A DNA stretch of 11,043 nucleotides from Candidatus Micrarchaeia archaeon (GCA_049976845.1 JBMFHL010000024.1:1-11043), one strand, 5' to 3'; positions 1,826-11,043 are shown, counted from the stretch's first letter. Notes: generated by a model not told the origin, from the letters alone. Numbers and translations: made by a program.

Positions 1826-2935
1826 ATGGAGCATAAAGAGTGGCAAGGTAAAGCCGAGAAGGCACTAACGCGCCTTTCGCATCCGGGGAAAAAGCTCAGC
1901 CCAGAAGAAGTGAAAGAGGCGTTGCAGCTGCTGCAGGATAATGGCGATTATGTTGTAGGCAAGCTATATAAACGATTCATAAATGCAGAAAACCTTAAAG
2001 GCAAACTAGACCTTTACTTGAGCGAAAGAACTACAGAGGATGCAGATGATGTAAAAATTAAGAAGGAGTTAAGCGAAACAATAATGCGCATATCAAATCC
2101 TGATTATCTTGAGCGCAATTTCAACATAAGCATAAAAGGTGCAATGGTCGAGCACTACCGCGCAGGCACTTTTTATCCATATGACATGCTGTCCCTAATG
2201 CACTTAGTGGTTATAGATTCCGTAAAAAACTGGTACTACGAAAATTTTAATGACAACACACAAGCAAGCCTGTTGGACAATATAAGCCCCATAGAGAAGA
2301 ATATAAAGCTATCCGGGATCGATGGTAAATCAAGCACAGCTCTCGCTTTTTCAATAATACTCCTTCTCACGTACCAAGAGGATAGTTACAAGGATAAAAT
2401 GGATATGGAAATAAAATCTTCTAAATTTATTGAAAATCCAAGCGAATTTATCAATGAGCCCATAGGCAGTGTTAGAATCGAAGTCTTCGAAAAGGACAAA
2501 AAAAAGATGCATGCACTTGCAGAAGAGATGTATAAAAGCATGAAAAAACAAGGCTACTTTGGAGAGCTATTTCCATCATATACCGAATTCTTAAAAAGAT
2601 TTCAGTACTTCGAGGACGAGTTCATAGGCGGCATAAAAGACGTCTACAATTACCTTCCAAGCATCAAATTCTCAACAGTAATGATGCTCACATACTATGC
2701 AGATGTAATAGCATACATTTTGGCTGAGGCAGAAAAGGCAAAAAATCCAATTACCCAAGGAGAGCTTGAGGACAAGGCTGAGAAAATAAACAGTGTCATA
2801 CAAAAATTAGTATTGAAGAACTCAATAGAATCAGAAGAAATAGAGCAGGCAAATACGCTGCTTATTTTTGTAAAAGGCCTAGAAGCGGCAGCGCCCTTGA
2901 ACAAGAACGGTGAAGTACAGGAAGGCTATGGATAA
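1826..2935 (+). CDS. Hypothetical protein, probably soluble and alpha-helical
   Basis: 369-aa ORF filling the gap between GT2 and rpoK; E/K/I/L-rich; no motif recognised. Confidence 0.8.
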   Translation: MEHKEWQGKAEKALTRLSHPGKKLSPEEVKEALQLLQDNGDYVVGKLYKRFINAENLKGKLDLYLSERTTEDADDVKIKKELSETIMRISNPDYLERNFNISIKGAMVEHYRAGTFYPYDMLSLMHLVVIDSVKNWYYENFNDNTQASLLDNISPIEKNIKLSGIDGKSSTALAFSIILLLTYQEDSYKDKMDMEIKSSKFIENPSEFINEPIGSVRIEVFEKDKKKMHALAEEMYKSMKKQGYFGELFPSYTEFLKRFQYFEDEFIGGIKDVYNYLPSIKFSTVMMLTYYADVIAYILAEAEKAKNPITQGELEDKAEKINSVIQKLVLKNSIESEEIEQANTLLIFVKGLEAAAPLNKNGEVQEGYG

Positions 2936-4823: not shown

Positions 4824-5123
4824 ATGGCTGATCTAGCTAGGGACATAAGGCTTGCAGTGGATACGGGCAAGGTAGCCCTCGGTTACCGAGAGGTAGCAAA
4901 GTCTATAAGCGAAGACAAGGCGAAGGTTGTAATTATAGCAGAGAAAGGCGACAAAAATAGGATAAACGACCTGATACACCTGTGCAACATATCTGGCATA
5001 AAACTATGGAAGTACAACAGCGGCTCGATAGAGCTTGGAACAGTCTGCGGAAAGCCTTATTCAGTGAATGCTGTAGCCGTAATAGACCAGGGTCATTCAA
5101 ATATATTAAATGAAAGTTATTAA
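4824..5123 (+). CDS. rpl30e: 50S ribosomal protein L30e (eL30)
   Basis: AVDTGKVALG, KAKVVIIA, ELGTVCGKPY and IDQGHSNIL match eL30; 99 aa. Confidence 0.97.
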   Translation: MADLARDIRLAVDTGKVALGYREVAKSISEDKAKVVIIAEKGDKNRINDLIHLCNISGIKLWKYNSGSIELGTVCGKPYSVNAVAVIDQGHSNILNESY

Positions 5124-5141
5124 TTTGATTAGGTGCATCAT

Positions 5142-5570
5142 GTGCCACGAGGAGAATTTGCAGCAAAAGAAATCCTGAAGAAGAGGAAAAGGCAGCGTAT
5201 GCTTAAGAAATGGTGGAAAAGGAAATATTTCAAGCTCAAGGCAAAGCATGACCCTGTAGGGACTGTGCCTATGGCAAAGGGTATAGTATTGCAGAAGTTC
5301 ATGCTTCAGCAGAAGCAGCCACACAGCGGTCTGATAAAATGCGTGAGGGTGCAGCTTATTAAGAACGGGAAAGTTGTTGGCGTTTATGTGCCTGAAGATG
5401 GCGCAATAAACTTTATAGACGAGCACGACGAGGTAACAATACAAGGCCTTGGCGGCTCGCAAAGAGGCCAGATGGGATGTATTCCTGGACTTAAGTATAG
5501 AGCTATAGCAATAAACGGCATAGATCTAAGACAGATTGTAAAAGGCAAGAAGGAGAAGCCGAAGAGGTAA
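5142..5570 (+). CDS. rps12: 30S ribosomal protein S12 (uS12, archaeal/eukaryotic type), divergent
   Basis: MPRGEFAA..., PMAKGIVL, KCVRVQLIKNGK, DGAINFIDEHDEV, GKKEKPKR. GTG at 5142 is preferred because AGGTG (5131-5135) is positioned as its SD. Confidence 0.97.
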   Translation: MPRGEFAAKEILKKRKRQRMLKKWWKRKYFKLKAKHDPVGTVPMAKGIVLQKFMLQQKQPHSGLIKCVRVQLIKNGKVVGVYVPEDGAINFIDEHDEVTIQGLGGSQRGQMGCIPGLKYRAIAINGIDLRQIVKGKKEKPKR

Positions 5571-5574
5571 TTTG

Positions 5575-6375
5575 ATGGCTGATGATAATGCAACTGATAA
5601 AGGAAGAGAGCAGGCAAGCAGTGTAGCTCCAACAGAGAATGCTGCAGTTAAGGCTAAGCGCAGCGCAAAGAATATTCAGAGCGTAAATCCACCTGCGCAG
5701 GAAGGCGAAGCAGCAACAGCTAAGCAAGCTGCAAAGCCGAAGCGCTCAAGGAAAACCGATGCAGTAGCAGAGGAACAGCTCCTGTTCGGAAAATATTCTT
5801 TTTCAGGCATAACAATTGCAGACCAAAGCTTCTCTAATTATCTAAGTTTAATGCCAATGAAATATCCAAACATATATGGGAGAAGGAAGCAGCAAGCTTA
5901 CTACTTCTCACATGCAAATGTTATTGAAAGGCTCATGAACAAGCTCATGCGAGGCGGTACAGGCAAGAAAGTCGGCGGCAGGGTCATAAGGACAGAAGGC
6001 AAGCTGCAGGGCAAAAAAATAAAAGTGATGCACATAGTAGAGCAGGCATTTGACACAATAAACAAACAGACAGGAAAGAATCCGATACAACTGCTCGTAG
6101 AAGCGATAGAGAATGTGGCCCCGATAGAAGATACAACCAGAGTTAGATACGGAGGCATAAACTACAATGTCGCTGTTGACGTTAGTTCGCTGAGAAGGCT
6201 CAATATAGCGCTTAAGAATCTCGCTCTTGCGGCGATAATGGGTAGCTTTAAAAACAGGAAGTCAATTGCTGATGCGCTTGCTAATGAGATTATGCTAGCT
6301 GCAAGCAAGAGTCCTGAAAGCTATGCCATAAAGAAAAAGATTGATGCAGAGCGCATGGCCAGGAGTGCAAGGTAA
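5575..6375 (+). CDS. rps7: 30S ribosomal protein S7 (uS7) with long N-terminal extension
   Basis: LFGKY, IERLMNKLM, NPIQLLVEAIENVAPIED, AVDVSSLRR, LANEI, ERMARSAR; SD GAGGT at 5564-5568 before ATG 5575. Confidence 0.97.
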   Translation: MADDNATDKGREQASSVAPTENAAVKAKRSAKNIQSVNPPAQEGEAATAKQAAKPKRSRKTDAVAEEQLLFGKYSFSGITIADQSFSNYLSLMPMKYPNIYGRRKQQAYYFSHANVIERLMNKLMRGGTGKKVGGRVIRTEGKLQGKKIKVMHIVEQAFDTINKQTGKNPIQLLVEAIENVAPIEDTTRVRYGGINYNVAVDVSSLRRLNIALKNLALAAIMGSFKNRKSIADALANEIMLAASKSPESYAIKKKIDAERMARSAR

Positions 6376-6380
6376 TTTTT

Positions 6381-8573
6381 ATGGTTAAGAAAGAATTTGT
6401 TGCGGAAGAAGTAGCAAAAATCATGGACACTCCTGACAGGATAAGGAACGTAGCAATAGTTGCACATGTTCACCATGGGAAGACAACCCTTACCGATTCC
6501 CTTCTTGCGAAGGCAGGCATAATATCTAAAAGTGTGGCAGGCGAAGTGCTCTACACAAATTACGACGAGATAGAGAAGGAAAGAAGGATAACAATAAAAT
6601 CGGCCAACATCTCGCTTGCTTTTACCTACAGTGGCAGCGATTACATTATAAACCTGATAGACACTCCAGGGCACGTAGATTTTGGCGGCCACGTAACAAG
6701 GTCGATGCGCGCAGTCGACGGAATAGTTTTAGTTGTTGATCCGGTAGAAGGCGTCATGCCGCAGACAGAAACGGTCATGAGGCAAGCGCTGAAGGAGAAG
6801 GCGAAGCCGGTGCTTTTCGTCAACAAGGTTGACAGGCTCCTTAACGAGCTCAGGCTTACCCCGGAGCAAACATTCGAGAGGCTGCAGAAGCTCATAGAAG
6901 ATGTTAACAAGCTTATAAGGAAATATGCGCCTGAGGATGTCGCCGAAAAGTGGGCAGTGAAAGTCGAAAATGGCAGCGTGTGCTTAGGATCAGCTTATAA
7001 AAAATGGGCGATTTCAAAGAGGATAATGGACAAATATAAGGTCACTTTCAAGGATATATTTGCACTCACCGCAGCAAATGACGAGGCTAAGCTGCAGGAG
7101 GTTGCCCCAATAGACGAGGCAGTGCTGTCGATGATAATAGAGCATCTGCCGAATCCGAAGGAGGCTCAGCCATACAGAATACCTAATCTGTGGCACGGCG
7201 ATCTTTCTAGCGAAGAGGGCAAGGCAATGGTAAATGTGGATAGATCCGCAAAGGTCGCGATGGTGATTTTCGGTATAACTTATGATCAGCATGGCGGAGA
7301 GGTTGCAATAGGCAGGGTTTTTGCCGGCACAGTGAGAAAAGGCACGCTGCTCAACATATCTGGAAGAGTGGAGCCGCAGCGCGTGCAACAAGTTGGCTTG
7401 TATATGGGTCCAGACAGGGTGCCTGTTGAAGAAGTGCCAGCTGGCAACATAGCCGCTGTAGTAGGATTGAAAGACATAACAATAGGAGATACAGCAAGCG
7501 AATCCGAAATGGAGCCTTTTGAGCAGATTAAGCACTATTCACAGCCTGTGGTCACAAAGGCGGTAGAGGCAAAAGATCCAAGGGATACATCAAAGCTCAT
7601 AGAGGCATTGAGGGAGCTGTCAAAAGAGGATCCTACAATAGCCGTAGAGATAAATCAGGAAACTGGAGAGCATTTGGTCAAGGGTATGGGCGAGCTTCAT
7701 TTAGAGATAATAGAAACAAAGCTCAAAGATGAGTACAAAATACCAATAACAACAAGCGAGCCTATAGTGGTTTACAGGGAAACAATAGAAGGTACGGTAA
7801 AGGATGTTGAAGGCAAATCACCCAATAGGCATTCCAGATTCTATGTTACCGTTTCGCCACTCGAGCAGGGTGTTGTAGACCTTATCGAAAGCGGCACAAT
7901 GAGGGAAGGAAAGCCTAAAGGAAAGGCTTACGTGGAGGATTTGATAAAAGCTGGCATGGTCAGGGAAGAGGCAAAGGAGCTTGTTGATATTTCAAGCAAT
8001 AGCGTGCTTCTAGACATGACACACGGAGTACAGTACATTAACGAGGTCATGGAGCTGCTTATAGAGGGATTTGAGGAGGCTGTTAACGATGGCCCATTGG
8101 CAAGGGAGAAGTGCTCAGGCATAAAAGTAATAATAACTGATGCCACGATACACGAGGATCCTGTGCACAGGGGTCCTGCGCAGATAATACCTGCAATGAG
8201 AAGGCCGATATACGCCGGCATGCTGCAGGCAGGGGTTGTATTGCTTGAGCCAAAGCAGAAATTCACGATAAACATACCTCAAGAATACATGTCAGATGTA
8301 ATATCATTGCTTCAGGGCAAGCGCGGCCAGATACTCGAGATAGAGCAAGAAAACGAACAGGCAACAATAATAGCAAAAATGCCAGTGGCAGAGGTAATAA
8401 AAGGATTCTCTAACGAGCTAAGGGGCTTGACGCAGGGAAGAGCGATATGGTATTTCGAGTATGCAGGTTTTGAGAAGCTGTCAAAGGACCTGCAGGCTGA
8501 GGTAGTTCGTGAGATAAGGACTAGAAAAGGACAGCCTCCAGAGCCGCCAAGGCCGGAGCAGTTTATGGATTAA
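6381..8573 (+). CDS. fusA: Translation elongation factor EF-2 (aEF-2) with atypical G1 and switch I motifs
   Basis: 730 aa; INLIDTPGHVDFGG, NKVDR, GMGELHLEI, EPIVVYRE, diphthamide loop HEDPVHRGPAQ (His596 at 8166-8168), LLEP; canonical position after rps12-rps7. Confidence 0.98.
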   Translation: MVKKEFVAEEVAKIMDTPDRIRNVAIVAHVHHGKTTLTDSLLAKAGIISKSVAGEVLYTNYDEIEKERRITIKSANISLAFTYSGSDYIINLIDTPGHVDFGGHVTRSMRAVDGIVLVVDPVEGVMPQTETVMRQALKEKAKPVLFVNKVDRLLNELRLTPEQTFERLQKLIEDVNKLIRKYAPEDVAEKWAVKVENGSVCLGSAYKKWAISKRIMDKYKVTFKDIFALTAANDEAKLQEVAPIDEAVLSMIIEHLPNPKEAQPYRIPNLWHGDLSSEEGKAMVNVDRSAKVAMVIFGITYDQHGGEVAIGRVFAGTVRKGTLLNISGRVEPQRVQQVGLYMGPDRVPVEEVPAGNIAAVVGLKDITIGDTASESEMEPFEQIKHYSQPVVTKAVEAKDPRDTSKLIEALRELSKEDPTIAVEINQETGEHLVKGMGELHLEIIETKLKDEYKIPITTSEPIVVYRETIEGTVKDVEGKSPNRHSRFYVTVSPLEQGVVDLIESGTMREGKPKGKAYVEDLIKAGMVREEAKELVDISSNSVLLDMTHGVQYINEVMELLIEGFEEAVNDGPLAREKCSGIKVIITDATIHEDPVHRGPAQIIPAMRRPIYAGMLQAGVVLLEPKQKFTINIPQEYMSDVISLLQGKRGQILEIEQENEQATIIAKMPVAEVIKGFSNELRGLTQGRAIWYFEYAGFEKLSKDLQAEVVREIRTRKGQPPEPPRPEQFMD

Positions 8574-8589: not shown

Positions 8590-8620
8590 TTTGACAGAGA
8601 AGAAATTGCAACTAATCGTT

Positions 8621-8640
8621 GCACCAATGAAACGAGGTGT
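8621..8640 (+). promoter_or_regulatory. Kink-turn/k-loop element in the rpl7ae 5' UTR (candidate L7Ae autoregulatory site)
   Basis: GCACC-AAU-GA-AAC-GA-GGUGU: 5-bp stem, 3-nt bulge ending in U, tandem G-A/A-G pairs; contains the SD GAGGUG (8634-8639). Confidence 0.7.
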
Positions 8641-8644
8641 TTTT

Positions 8645-9100
8645 ATGGCAAAAGCATATGTGAAATTCGAAGTGTCAAAGGAAGTAGCAGATAAAATAGT
8701 CGAAGCAATAAGGTTAGCAAAGCAGAGCGGCGCCGTTAAGAAAGGCGCAAATGAAGTGACGAAAAGCATAGAGCGCGGCTTAGCAAGTTTTGTTGTAATT
8801 GCCGAGGACGTGGAACCGGAGGAAGTAGTAATGCACATCCCAATGCTCTGCGAGCAGAAAAAGATAACATTTGCATACCTGCCGACAAAAGAGATTCTTG
8901 GAAAGGCGGCGGGGCTTAATGTGCCTTGTACAGCAGTTGCAGTTGAGAAAATGGGGCAGGCGGAAGGGGCAATAAAGGAAATTGCTTCTAGGATAACAGG
9001 CAAACCACAGGAGAAAGCAGAGCCAAAGGAGAAGGCGGAGCAAAAGCCTCAGCCGAAGCCAAAGGCAGATGCGCAAGGCAAGCAGCAGCAAAAGAATTAA
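8645..9100 (+). CDS. rpl7ae: 50S ribosomal protein L7Ae (eL8) with charged C-terminal tail
   Basis: MAKAYVKFEV, KKGANEVTKSIERG, VVIAEDVEPEEVVMHIPMLCE, LGKAAGLNV; ATG 8645 follows SD GAGGTG; 151 aa. Confidence 0.97.
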   Translation: MAKAYVKFEVSKEVADKIVEAIRLAKQSGAVKKGANEVTKSIERGLASFVVIAEDVEPEEVVMHIPMLCEQKKITFAYLPTKEILGKAAGLNVPCTAVAVEKMGQAEGAIKEIASRITGKPQEKAEPKEKAEQKPQPKPKADAQGKQQQKN

Positions 9101-9524: not shown

Positions 9525-9815
9525 ATGCCTATGTCTGAAGAAGAAGAATTTAAGCTGCTTTTGAAAGAGTCAAGGCGCAGCAGCGATTATAATGCATTTG
9601 GTTCATTGTTGGAATATGTATCCAAAGACCCCAAGAAATACGCTGGCGACGTACTGGTTCTTGCTGCAGAGCTTACAAAAAGGAAAGCAATGTCGTCAAG
9701 CGAAGAGGGCGCAAAAGAAATAGCGTCTGCATTCATGAACCTCTACAATATATACAAAGAGTATGCTAGCGAAGAAACGCTGGAAAAGGTGCGTGAGATA
9801 CTCAAAACCATATAG
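9525..9815 (+). CDS. Hypothetical small helical protein
   Basis: 96-aa ORF 11 nt after the rpl24e stop, same strand, with amphipathic helical pattern; start could be 9531. Confidence 0.75.
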   Translation: MPMSEEEEFKLLLKESRRSSDYNAFGSLLEYVSKDPKKYAGDVLVLAAELTKRKAMSSSEEGAKEIASAFMNLYNIYKEYASEETLEKVREILKTI

Positions 9816-9965: not shown

Positions 9966-11043
9966 ATGGAAATCAAAGAAAAAGCTGTTAATAAGAGCCG
10001 ACAACAAGACAGCATACAAATACCAAAATTTGATGTCGCAAAAGAAAGCATACGCCAATCTGTAAACTACTTCAGCGACGTGACATCGTCTGCACGCAAG
10101 CTTAAAAAAGAGCTTAAATATAGAGACATAATTATATTCAATTCGAACTGGGTTGCAACCTATCATGTAGCAGAAACCCTTGCTCGTGCGACTAAAGACA
10201 AAGAGACACTAGATAAGCTTGAAGAGATAAATGAAAATATAAGGAAAAATGCGGCAGAGTTAGGCTATGAGACAAGCAACTACTCTACAAAGAAGCTCAG
10301 GGGAAAAAACTATCAAAGTGTAAAGGACATAATCGAAGCAGATCTTAAATTCAGGCCTACAGTTTTCGATGATATTGATTCAGCAACAATTGACTATATA
10401 CTCGAAATAAAGAGTCTTTTGAGGCAATTGGTCTTGCCAGACAATGTAGGTTCTAGCGTTGCAGCTAAGCCAGATGCCGAAGAGCAAAAAAGGAAAGAAG
10501 AACAAAAAAAGAAGGAAGAGCAAGACGCAAAAGACGCAGAAGAAAAGGAGAAGCAAAAGCAAGAGAAGAAAGATAAAAAGCTTAAGGGAAAGAATTCAGC
10601 TGTAATAATAAATGAGCAACAACCAGCTGAGAATCCGAAAAAAAAGGTTCAATCTGGTCCTGCGATAATAAAAGAAAAGATAAACAACGAGAACAAGGAG
10701 AATGAAGCTGCAAAGCTAAAAGAACAAAAGAGGCTGCTTAGGGTTCAAAAACCTCAGGAACAAACAGCGCAGAACGAGCAGAAGAAAATTGAGATACAGC
10801 AGCATAACAAAATAAGAAACGTAGGTGCAAGGCTTACGCAAATTGGCGTAGCATTAGATGTGGCAGGTGCAGCCGTAGCCTGGGTGTTTGGGCCTGTAGG
10901 TGTATTGCCTGGCATAATATTGGGCACAATAGGTGTGCCCTCTTTGGCAGCGGGTATACCAATGTGGCTTGCCGGGGTTTTTATAGACGATCATAGGAGC
11001 AAGAAAGCAGCAAAATCTGCAGTATCAAAGCAGCAGCAGCAAC
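9966..11043 (+). CDS. Hypothetical membrane-anchored protein: helical N-domain, K/E/Q-rich linker, Gly-rich hydrophobic hairpin (partial, 3' end beyond window)
   Basis: ATG 9966 after SD GGTG (9957-9960); open for 359 codons to the edge: MEIKEKAVNK...EEQKRKEEQKKKEEQ...IGVALDVAGAAVAWVFGPVGVLPGIILGTIGVPSLAAGIPMWLAGVFIDDHRSKK. Not in the ORF track. Confidence 0.88.
   Translation, partial: MEIKEKAVNKSRQQDSIQIPKFDVAKESIRQSVNYFSDVTSSARKLKKELKYRDIIIFNSNWVATYHVAETLARATKDKETLDKLEEINENIRKNAAELGYETSNYSTKKLRGKNYQSVKDIIEADLKFRPTVFDDIDSATIDYILEIKSLLRQLVLPDNVGSSVAAKPDAEEQKRKEEQKKKEEQDAKDAEEKEKQKQEKKDKKLKGKNSAVIINEQQPAENPKKKVQSGPAIIKEKINNENKENEAAKLKEQKRLLRVQKPQEQTAQNEQKKIEIQQHNKIRNVGARLTQIGVALDVAGAAVAWVFGPVGVLPGIILGTIGVPSLAAGIPMWLAGVFIDDHRSKKAAKSAVSKQQQQ

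Follow-up and report, generated by a model that had tools for sequence, protein, structure and literature searches.

The uS12 (rps12) gene on an 11,043-nucleotide stretch of DNA from a Candidatus Micrarchaeia archaeon (GCA_049976845.1 JBMFHL010000024.1:1-11043; the whole stretch is referred to here as the window) encodes a cysteine, Cys116, at the position of Asp88 in Escherichia coli uS12. The cysteine is probably a lineage-typical, serine-like filler of a decoding-centre pocket that was rebuilt at the root of the Micrarchaeota. What appears to be new is that a whole sampled phylum lacks the 'universal' Asp88 together with Arg49 and conserves the rebuilt pocket. Full-text literature searches returned no earlier description of a loss of uS12 Asp88.

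The uS12 open reading frame (ORF) occupies positions 5133-5570 on the plus strand and yields 145 residues when read from GTG 5133, although the true start is probably GTG 5142, judging from 142-residue database copies. It matches Pfam PF00164 (Ribosom_S12_S23) with 117.3 bits (cut-off 22.3) over profile positions 2-110 of 110 and NCBIfam TIGR00982 (uS12_E_A) with 166.8 bits (cut-off 140.2); against NF003254 it scores 181.5, slightly below the cut-off of 196. The codons ATG GGA TGT ATT CCT GGA at 5472-5489 are in frame with the ORF, whose translation includes GSQRGQMGCIPGLKY / GGSQRGQMGCIPGLKY, and the stretch to 5495 adds CTT AAG (Leu Lys). The phmmer alignment to solved Pyrococcus and Thermococcus uS12 (4v6u, 6skf) is without gaps and places Cys116 (TGT, 5478-5480, plus strand) on the Asp of MGDIPG, His64 (CAC, 5322-5324, plus strand) on the Asn and Ile68 (ATA, 5334-5336, plus strand) on the Arg of PNSGMRK. 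The corresponding E. coli numbers, Asp88, Asn45 and Arg49, were assigned by motif and are consistent with the Lys87, Leu89, Pro90, Gly91 and Arg93 of PMC3347575. Both altered sites in loop 1 fall within KQPHSGLIKC (residues 61-70; 5313-5342, plus strand), which ends in Cys70 (TGC, 5340-5342, plus strand), the cysteine of a KCVR motif. Cys116 belongs to loop 2, GGSQRGQMGCIPG (residues 107-119; 5451-5489, plus strand), which also includes Arg111, a Gly in other archaea; the archaeal and eukaryotic form of its core is GDIPG.

An AlphaFold2 model of the protein has a mean predicted local distance difference test (pLDDT) of 77, with a value of about 61 for the block containing the Cys116 loop, which was folded without rRNA. 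In a Foldseek comparison with the PDB, the top 50 matches of this model are all uS12/RPS23 chains, at template-modelling (TM) scores of 0.63-0.70. Asn45, Arg49 and Asp88 lie outside the formal definition of the family, and with His64, Ile68 and Cys116 at these three sites the source protein is a variant that is still within uS12. The gene is predicted to be the single, functional uS12 of a Micrarchaeota (DPANN) archaeon. An artefact is almost certainly not the explanation, be it an error of sequencing or of assembly, a pseudogene or an additional paralogue outside the ribosome, as the ORF is intact, stands in S12-S7-EF2 order and is the single uS12 match in the source genome (G000; 731 kb, 52 contigs, about 90% complete). 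A 142-residue database protein (P0002) is 100% identical to it and is recorded from three contigs. The cysteine moreover recurs in 50 of the 95 genomes of the window's order, and the 120 closest database homologues comprise 69 with Cys, 49 with Ser, 2 with Ala and none with Asp; GCIPG is also present in P0110, a protein named uS12 of Ca. Mancarchaeum acidiphilum. A look-up of public sequencing runs, RNA included, for positions 5000-5700 listed none. Sequencing error and pseudogene are rejected on the intact single-copy ORF and this recurrence. A sequence-only reading of the DNA, made before this analysis, had placed a GCIPG cysteine at the Asp88 equivalent and had taken it for more than a read error, and both statements hold. 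Its supporting argument, that Asp to Cys needs two base changes, is correct as arithmetic but beside the point, since it was Ser or Cys, and not Asp, that stood at the site in the immediate ancestors.

The geometry of the pocket around this residue is taken from the literature. Asp88 is there said to be present in all known bacterial, archaeal and eukaryotic homologues, and attempts to obtain E. coli Asp88 mutants failed; the residue is buried in a pocket lined by uS12 residues 44-51 and 16S nucleotides 522-528 (PMC3347575). At 2 Å resolution, the methyl group of m7G527 in the E. coli ribosome sits in the uS12 pocket and adjoins β-methylthio-Asp89 (PMC7550191). With respect to the modification by RimO and the nearness to the 530 loop, the sequence-only reading agrees with these two sources. 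A1492 forms hydrogen bonds with C518 and, in Thermus numbering, with Ser50 of S12 (PMC5270523), which by motif mapping would be the neighbour of the Asn45 residue. The human variant RPS23 p.Arg67Lys changes fidelity (PMC6954397), and mapping by the KQPNSAIRK motif would make Arg67 the equivalent of Arg49. The protein residues changed in Micrarchaeota thus correspond to the buried Asp and to the loop forming its wall.

We read uS12 from 169 species genomes of one class, comprising 26 GTDB families (f1-f26), through a search in relatives, 200 genomes sampled evenly over the phylum and a follow-up of 30. Asp occupies site 88 in none of the 169. All 74 genomes of the other orders (families f4-f26) have Ser, with TCN codons in 70 and AGC in 4. 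The 95 genomes of the window's order (f1-f3) are divided between Cys (50; TGC 42, TGT 8), Ser (36), His (5), Ala (2), Arg (1) and Trp (1), and the six other genomes of the source genus all have AGC Ser. Ser codons within this order are AGY in 28 cases versus TCN in 7, and Thr was never seen at the site. Arg49 is replaced in all 167 aligned Micrarchaeota rows, by Ile in 152, Val in 10 and Leu in 5. At residue 45, 152 of these rows have His, 8 have Asn and 7 have Ser, and the 15 rows without His all belong to f1+f3. In these tallies G077 (loop GSIAG) is counted as Ser, as is G067, a partial sequence of 81 residues that was excluded from the tree described below; G215 and G211 are outside the uS12 counts, and three genomes that are 84-88% complete (G011, G019 and G200) gave no uS12 match. 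The unpublished G050 (Cys; G518, A527) is included, and the 16S counts below also include the unpublished G215; removal shifts each tally by one, and none of the claims depends on these two genomes alone. Loop 2 varies at one further site in a few lineages: the Pro90 equivalent is Ser (GSISG) in L059 (genome G037, family f2) and in L166, L168 and L169 (f12), and Ala (GSIAG) in L211 (genome G077). In bacteria, Pro90 is listed among the sites of streptomycin resistance or dependence (PMC3347575).

The comparison with other archaea was made on 162 outgroup loci from Thermoproteota, Nitrososphaeria, Bathyarchaeia, Hadarchaeota, Thermococci, Methanomethylicia, Asgard, Poseidoniales, Methanomassiliicoccales (Thermoplasmatota) and others, so that Micrarchaeota are the only DPANN phylum in the comparison. 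All 162 loci keep Arg49 and 160 keep Asn45. Asp88 can be aligned in 161 of them, and L252, the one left over, carries the Asp within a disrupted loop. In this locus, from a Njordarchaeota metagenome-assembled genome (MAG), the GD.PG loop is precisely where a stop codon and an insert of 11 residues interrupt the reading frame (GDMPAVA*SRAPQIPG); the cause may lie in the assembly or in a true disruption of the gene. Residue 45 alone departs from Asn, with Arg49 and Asp88 retained, in the Thermoproteota MAG locus L257, which has His (RQPHSGLRK), and in P0127, which has Cys (RKPCSGLRK) and whose closest named locus is a Njordarchaeota MAG at 79% identity. Among the best 150 cluster representatives of a HMMER search, the loop-2 motif was readable in 130, with Asp in 126 and Ser in 4, the latter all bearing the Micrarchaeota loop signature; this list consists mostly of long eukaryote-like gene models and is a weak census of Asp88.

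A column was considered replaced phylum-wide when it was at least 90% conserved in 161 outgroup sequences and the outgroup residue occurred in at most 5% of Micrarchaeota. Five of 65 conserved columns qualify: column 64 went from Asn to His, 68 from Arg to Ile, 106 from Ile to Leu, 111 from Gly to Arg and 116 from Asp to Ser or Cys. At column 111, 99% of the outgroup has Gly, and 160 of the 167 Micrarchaeota have Arg. Because four of the five columns lie in the two decoding-centre loops, with the fifth (106) at the base of loop 2, the change in the Micrarchaeota protein appears targeted rather than the product of general drift.

The history of the site was followed on a 'quick' IQ-TREE tree of 167 uS12 proteins, computed with column 116 omitted from a single gene of about 140 columns. 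The 93 rows of families f1 and f3 group together as a single clade (support 99). The family f2 genome G037 clusters with f12 in this tree and not with its own order. Outside f1+f3, the site-88 codon underwent about 44 nucleotide changes (85 in the whole tree minus 41 in f1+f3), and all tips are Ser. The codons TCA, TCC, TCG, TCT and AGC are all in use there, and Cys is one transversion away from TCY. Because every tip is Ser despite so many codon changes, the new Ser88 state outside f1+f3 is best read as being under selection.

These patterns bear on the proposal that selection was simply relaxed, in that the pocket became unimportant in reduced, host-dependent, fast-evolving archaea and the site was left to drift. 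Such a process would account for the six different residues found at site 88 in f1+f3, where the column ranks 26th of 145 by number of changes. It would also fit the changes at other conserved rRNA positions, with G, C or A at 16S position 518 over the phylum and C1404U with G1497A in the source. Drift does not, however, predict Ser in 74 of 74 genomes outside the order in the face of about 44 codon changes, nor invariant neighbouring loop residues, nor a concentration of four of only five changed columns, among 65 conserved ones, in two loops. The replacements are themselves conserved, with Ile, Val or Leu in 167 of 167 rows at site 49, His in 152 of 167 at site 45 and Cys or Ser in 84 of the 93 rows of f1+f3 at site 88. 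We therefore regard relaxed selection as unlikely. Its signature as named in the sequence-only reading, many different residues in relatives, is present in part, since His, Ala, Arg and Trp also occur.

Within f1+f3, site 116 needs 14 changes, and columns 109-115 and 117-119 need none or one each. There were at least nine switches between Cys and Ser among the 84 Cys/Ser rows. Codon-level Sankoff parsimony gives TGC (Cys) as ancestral for f1+f3, and TGC tied with TGG for f1; on these sequences, Cys is probably the ancestral state of the combined clade. In the tree, the source genome and its six congeners with AGC Ser are sister groups, and the branches that follow carry Cys as TGC. Because of these TGC branches beyond the congeners, the TGT of the source is most likely simply a retained cysteine that went through a synonymous TGC to TGT change, the congeners having moved to AGC Ser. 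Switches between the two Ser codon sets, TCN and AGY, can proceed via Cys or Thr intermediates. Because AGY dominates inside the order, TCN (70 of 74) prevails outside it and Thr is absent, the economical codon path would be from TCN Ser via TGY Cys to AGY Ser.

The RNA wall of the pocket has changed as well. The source 16S rRNA gene lies on another contig (locus L140, contig C20 of G000), and its 515-533 segment reads GTGGCAGCCGCCACGGTAA. Relative to the Rfam archaeal consensus, C518 is replaced by G and G527 by A. Infernal classes the pair 522-527 as non-standard, which makes C522-A527 an uncompensated mismatch. A pattern scan for the 515-533 segment in 201 Micrarchaeota genomes recovered it from 138, of which 63 belong to the window's order and 75 to other orders. 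All 63 genomes of the window's order have A527, and their position 518 is G in 59 and C in 4. In the other orders, position 527 is G in 73 and A in 2, and position 518 is G in 41, C in 30 and A in 4. G527A thus marks the clade in which site 88 begins to vary. The C518 genomes of the window's order (three of genus g32 and G042) are among those that combine Ser45 with His or Arg at site 88, which hints at a three-way link between 518, 45 and 88 that rests on two lineages.

Several further features of the 16S genes were observed. Over all 138 genomes, position 518 is G in 100, C in 34 and A in 4, making it a decoding-centre nucleotide that varies within one phylum; a pyrimidine (C or U) is usual at this position. 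In helix 44, beside A1492/A1493, the source has the compensated pair C1404U and G1497A (L140 1623-1640 and 1530-1549, minus strand; numbering by mapping). The source gene measures 1987 nucleotides against a 1478-position Rfam model and contains a single 501-nucleotide insertion after about model position 1033, just past GUUAAG (L140 about 1945-2445, minus strand), which is probably an rRNA intron. Genome G186 has both a G518 and a C518 version of the segment, on two contigs (C6 and C110), which could reflect two rRNA operons or contamination. The canonical 515-533 sequence, as given by the Rfam archaeal consensus, is the target of widely used universal primers, and the G518/A527 form departs from it at two positions. 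Mismatches of DPANN archaea to 16S primers in general have already been published, and Fig. S6 of that work may show changes in 515-533 (PMC8407392).

The restriction of Cys to the A527 clade raises the possibility that the thiol itself is selected on the A527 background, whether through a modification such as S-methylation to a thioether, through redox sensing, or as part of a His/Cys/metal site with loop 1. In the other orders, all 74 genomes have Ser and none has Cys, which a single change from TCY to TGY would produce, and TGC is retained across most f3 genera. Within f1+f3, site 88 is occupied by Cys (45) or Ser (33) in every one of the 78 rows that have His45, and the nine odd residues are confined to the 15 rows that lack it, which comprise Cys 5, His 5, Ala 2, Arg 1, Ser 1 and Trp 1. 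Furthermore, the sulfur of a cysteine sits on the β-carbon, the atom that RimO thiolates. Against selection for the thiol, Ser replaces Cys repeatedly (the nine or more switches), including in all six congeners, and the 33 Ser rows among the 78 with His45 indicate that a His-Cys pair is not required. Cys88 also occurs in five rows with Gly or Thr at the position of the KCVR cysteine, which on sequence grounds argues against an obligatory Cys-Cys site formed with that residue. No candidate for a modifying enzyme was found in a search that covered RimO-type enzymes only. Phylogenetic control does not strengthen the 45/88 association: an independent-pairs test of His45 versus Cys or Ser at 88 gave three supported pairs (sign test p = 1), and tests of Cys versus Ser at 88 against residue 92 or 48 gave four pairs (p about 1), too few for power in either case. 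We consider selection for the thiol quite unlikely, and the 45/88 link inside f1+f3 is suggestive, a lead rather than a result.

The sequence-only reading had proposed that the cysteine might co-vary with the changes in loop 1. At the level of the phylum this link with loop 1 is supported, with non-Asp88, non-Arg49 and mostly His45 combined in all Micrarchaeota examined and in 0 of 162 other archaea. This pattern constitutes one phylum-level event, however, and not statistical covariation of positions 45, 49 and 88, and the within-clade test, with its three pairs, adds nothing to it.

The same reading had gone further and seen in the cysteine a genetically encoded sulfur at a site that bacteria modify with sulfur. 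RimO thiolates the β-carbon of Asp88 (PMC3347575) and is described as exclusively bacterial (PMC10702137). No RimO-type enzyme was detected in the source genome at its completeness of about 90%: its only PF00919 match is a methylthiotransferase that scores 400 bits against TIGR01578 (tRNA e-MtaB type; cut-off 314.7) and 195.3 bits against TIGR01125 RimO (cut-off 356.95). The substrate of RimO, an Asp at site 88, is likewise missing, as the window encodes Cys and no Micrarchaeota genome of the 169 encodes Asp. An encoded mimic of bacterial methylthio-Asp, and with it the encoded sulfur as a selected feature, is thus not supported, in view of the lack of RimO, the Ser found throughout the other orders and in the congeners, and the repeated Cys/Ser switching.

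Taken together, the data favor a serine-like filler in a rebuilt pocket, for which we propose the following course. The joint loss of an acidic residue, Asp88, and a basic one, Arg49, would date from the root of the phylum, Ser and Ile taking their places, with Asn45 becoming His and a loop-2 Gly becoming Arg; a buried charged pair would in this way have been exchanged for a small polar residue beside a hydrophobic one. Later, in the f1+f3 clade, the RNA wall would have been altered by G527 to A, with its C522-A527 mismatch, and by C518 to G. From then on, site 88 would have accepted Cys, one base away from Ser (TCY to TGY). The source would have kept the ancestral TGC as TGT, and its six congeners would have shifted to AGC Ser. 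The thiol would then act as a small, uncharged, Ser-like side chain packed on the altered 530 loop, not as a stand-in for methylthio-Asp. In this scheme the residue pattern with its phylogenetic distribution, the 16S changes and the codon paths come from the data, whereas the exchange of the charged pair and the packing role are inferences.

Several points weigh against this scheme. The ancestral states and change counts are approximate, coming from a single short gene and a quick tree. The protein changes are older than those at 518 and 527, and they are independent of them, because orders whose 515-533 segment is unchanged have them too. Freedom at site 88 seems coupled to nucleotide 527, but this coupling goes back to essentially one origin, and two genomes of another family (G150 and G180) combine A527 with Ser88. 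The Asp88-Arg49 charge pair is a supposition from sequence and published geometry. A cysteine that is long-lived and dominant in f3, as TGC in most genera, would also fit an advantage of the thiol on the A527 background. Finally, 'only in Micrarchaeota' refers to the examined material, in which Micrarchaeota are the sole DPANN phylum. A bolder version, in which Micrarchaeota decode with a co-evolved pocket unlike that of other sampled archaea and the Cys clade uses its thiol chemically, as a methylated thioether that would be a gene-encoded parallel to bacterial methylthio-Asp or as a redox switch, is a long shot; if true, it would mean a distinct decoding fidelity or speed in host-dependent cells.

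A phylum that lacks Asp88 represents a natural, multi-site suppressor experiment for this residue. The concerted replacement, involving Arg49 and Asn45 and later G527 and C518, names residues and nucleotides that must change together. It makes the role of Asp88, a functional pairing of Arg49 with Asp88 and the co-evolution of uS12 with the 530 loop testable. Material for mass spectrometry or cryo-EM may be within reach via Ca. Mancarchaeum acidiphilum, the source of P0110.

The gene neighborhood in the window follows the usual S12-S7-EF2 order. Directly upstream of uS12 is an L7Ae/L30e-family ribosomal protein (PF01248; 4824-5123, plus strand), probably L30e on the basis of its size and position. 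Directly downstream lies uS7 (PF00177; 5572-6375, plus strand), followed by elongation factor 2 (aEF-2; 6381-8573, plus strand) with GTP_EFTU, EFG_III, EFG_IV and EFG_C domains. The uS7 ORF has 267 residues, of which the Pfam S7 match covers 114-267, the first 110 or so forming an extension rich in Ala, Lys, Glu and Gln. A second L7Ae-family protein (8591-9100, plus strand; 169 residues) extends past its Pfam match at residues 35-125 into a tail of some 45 C-terminal residues in which Lys, Pro, Gln and Glu are abundant. Three further plus-strand ORFs, at 1826-2935, 9525-9815 and 9966-11042, are without a Pfam match; Lys, Glu and Gln are very abundant in the last of these, which runs off the window and closes with a hydrophobic, Gly/Ala-rich segment resembling a membrane anchor.

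Compared with canonical archaeal and eukaryotic uS12/RPS23, as solved for Pyrococcus (4v6u, 9qf5), T. kodakarensis (6skf) and Saccharolobus (9fhl), the source protein belongs to the same family, with the same length, a similar predicted fold (TM about 0.7), 49-52% identity and the same gene neighborhood, and it keeps Pro44, Ser46, Lys50 and the IPG of loop 2. It differs in Asn45 to His, Arg49 to Ile, Asp88 to Cys and, five residues before site 88, Gly to Arg, and on the RNA side in G527A and C518G of 16S rRNA. The resemblance to bacterial uS12 with β-methylthio-Asp88 lies in the position beside nucleotide 527 and in a sulfur on the β-carbon. In bacteria, however, the carboxylate is kept and a thioether is added post-translationally by the radical-SAM enzyme RimO, whereas the source has an encoded thiol that alternates with Ser, and neither Asp nor RimO.

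The streptomycin-resistant or -dependent mutants of bacteria (Lys87, Leu89, Pro90, Gly91 and Arg93; PMC3347575) and human RPS23 p.Arg67Lys affect the same two loops. These are single changes with a phenotypic cost; in contrast, several residues are jointly replaced in Micrarchaeota, and the replacements are fixed in the phylum and conserved. Finally, the pattern in the order of the source is similar to that of Ser codon-set switches, with TCN Ser outside and TGY Cys and AGY Ser inside. It departs from them in that the cysteine is not a brief intermediate but a long-lived state, the majority residue of f3 and the likely residue of the f1+f3 ancestor.

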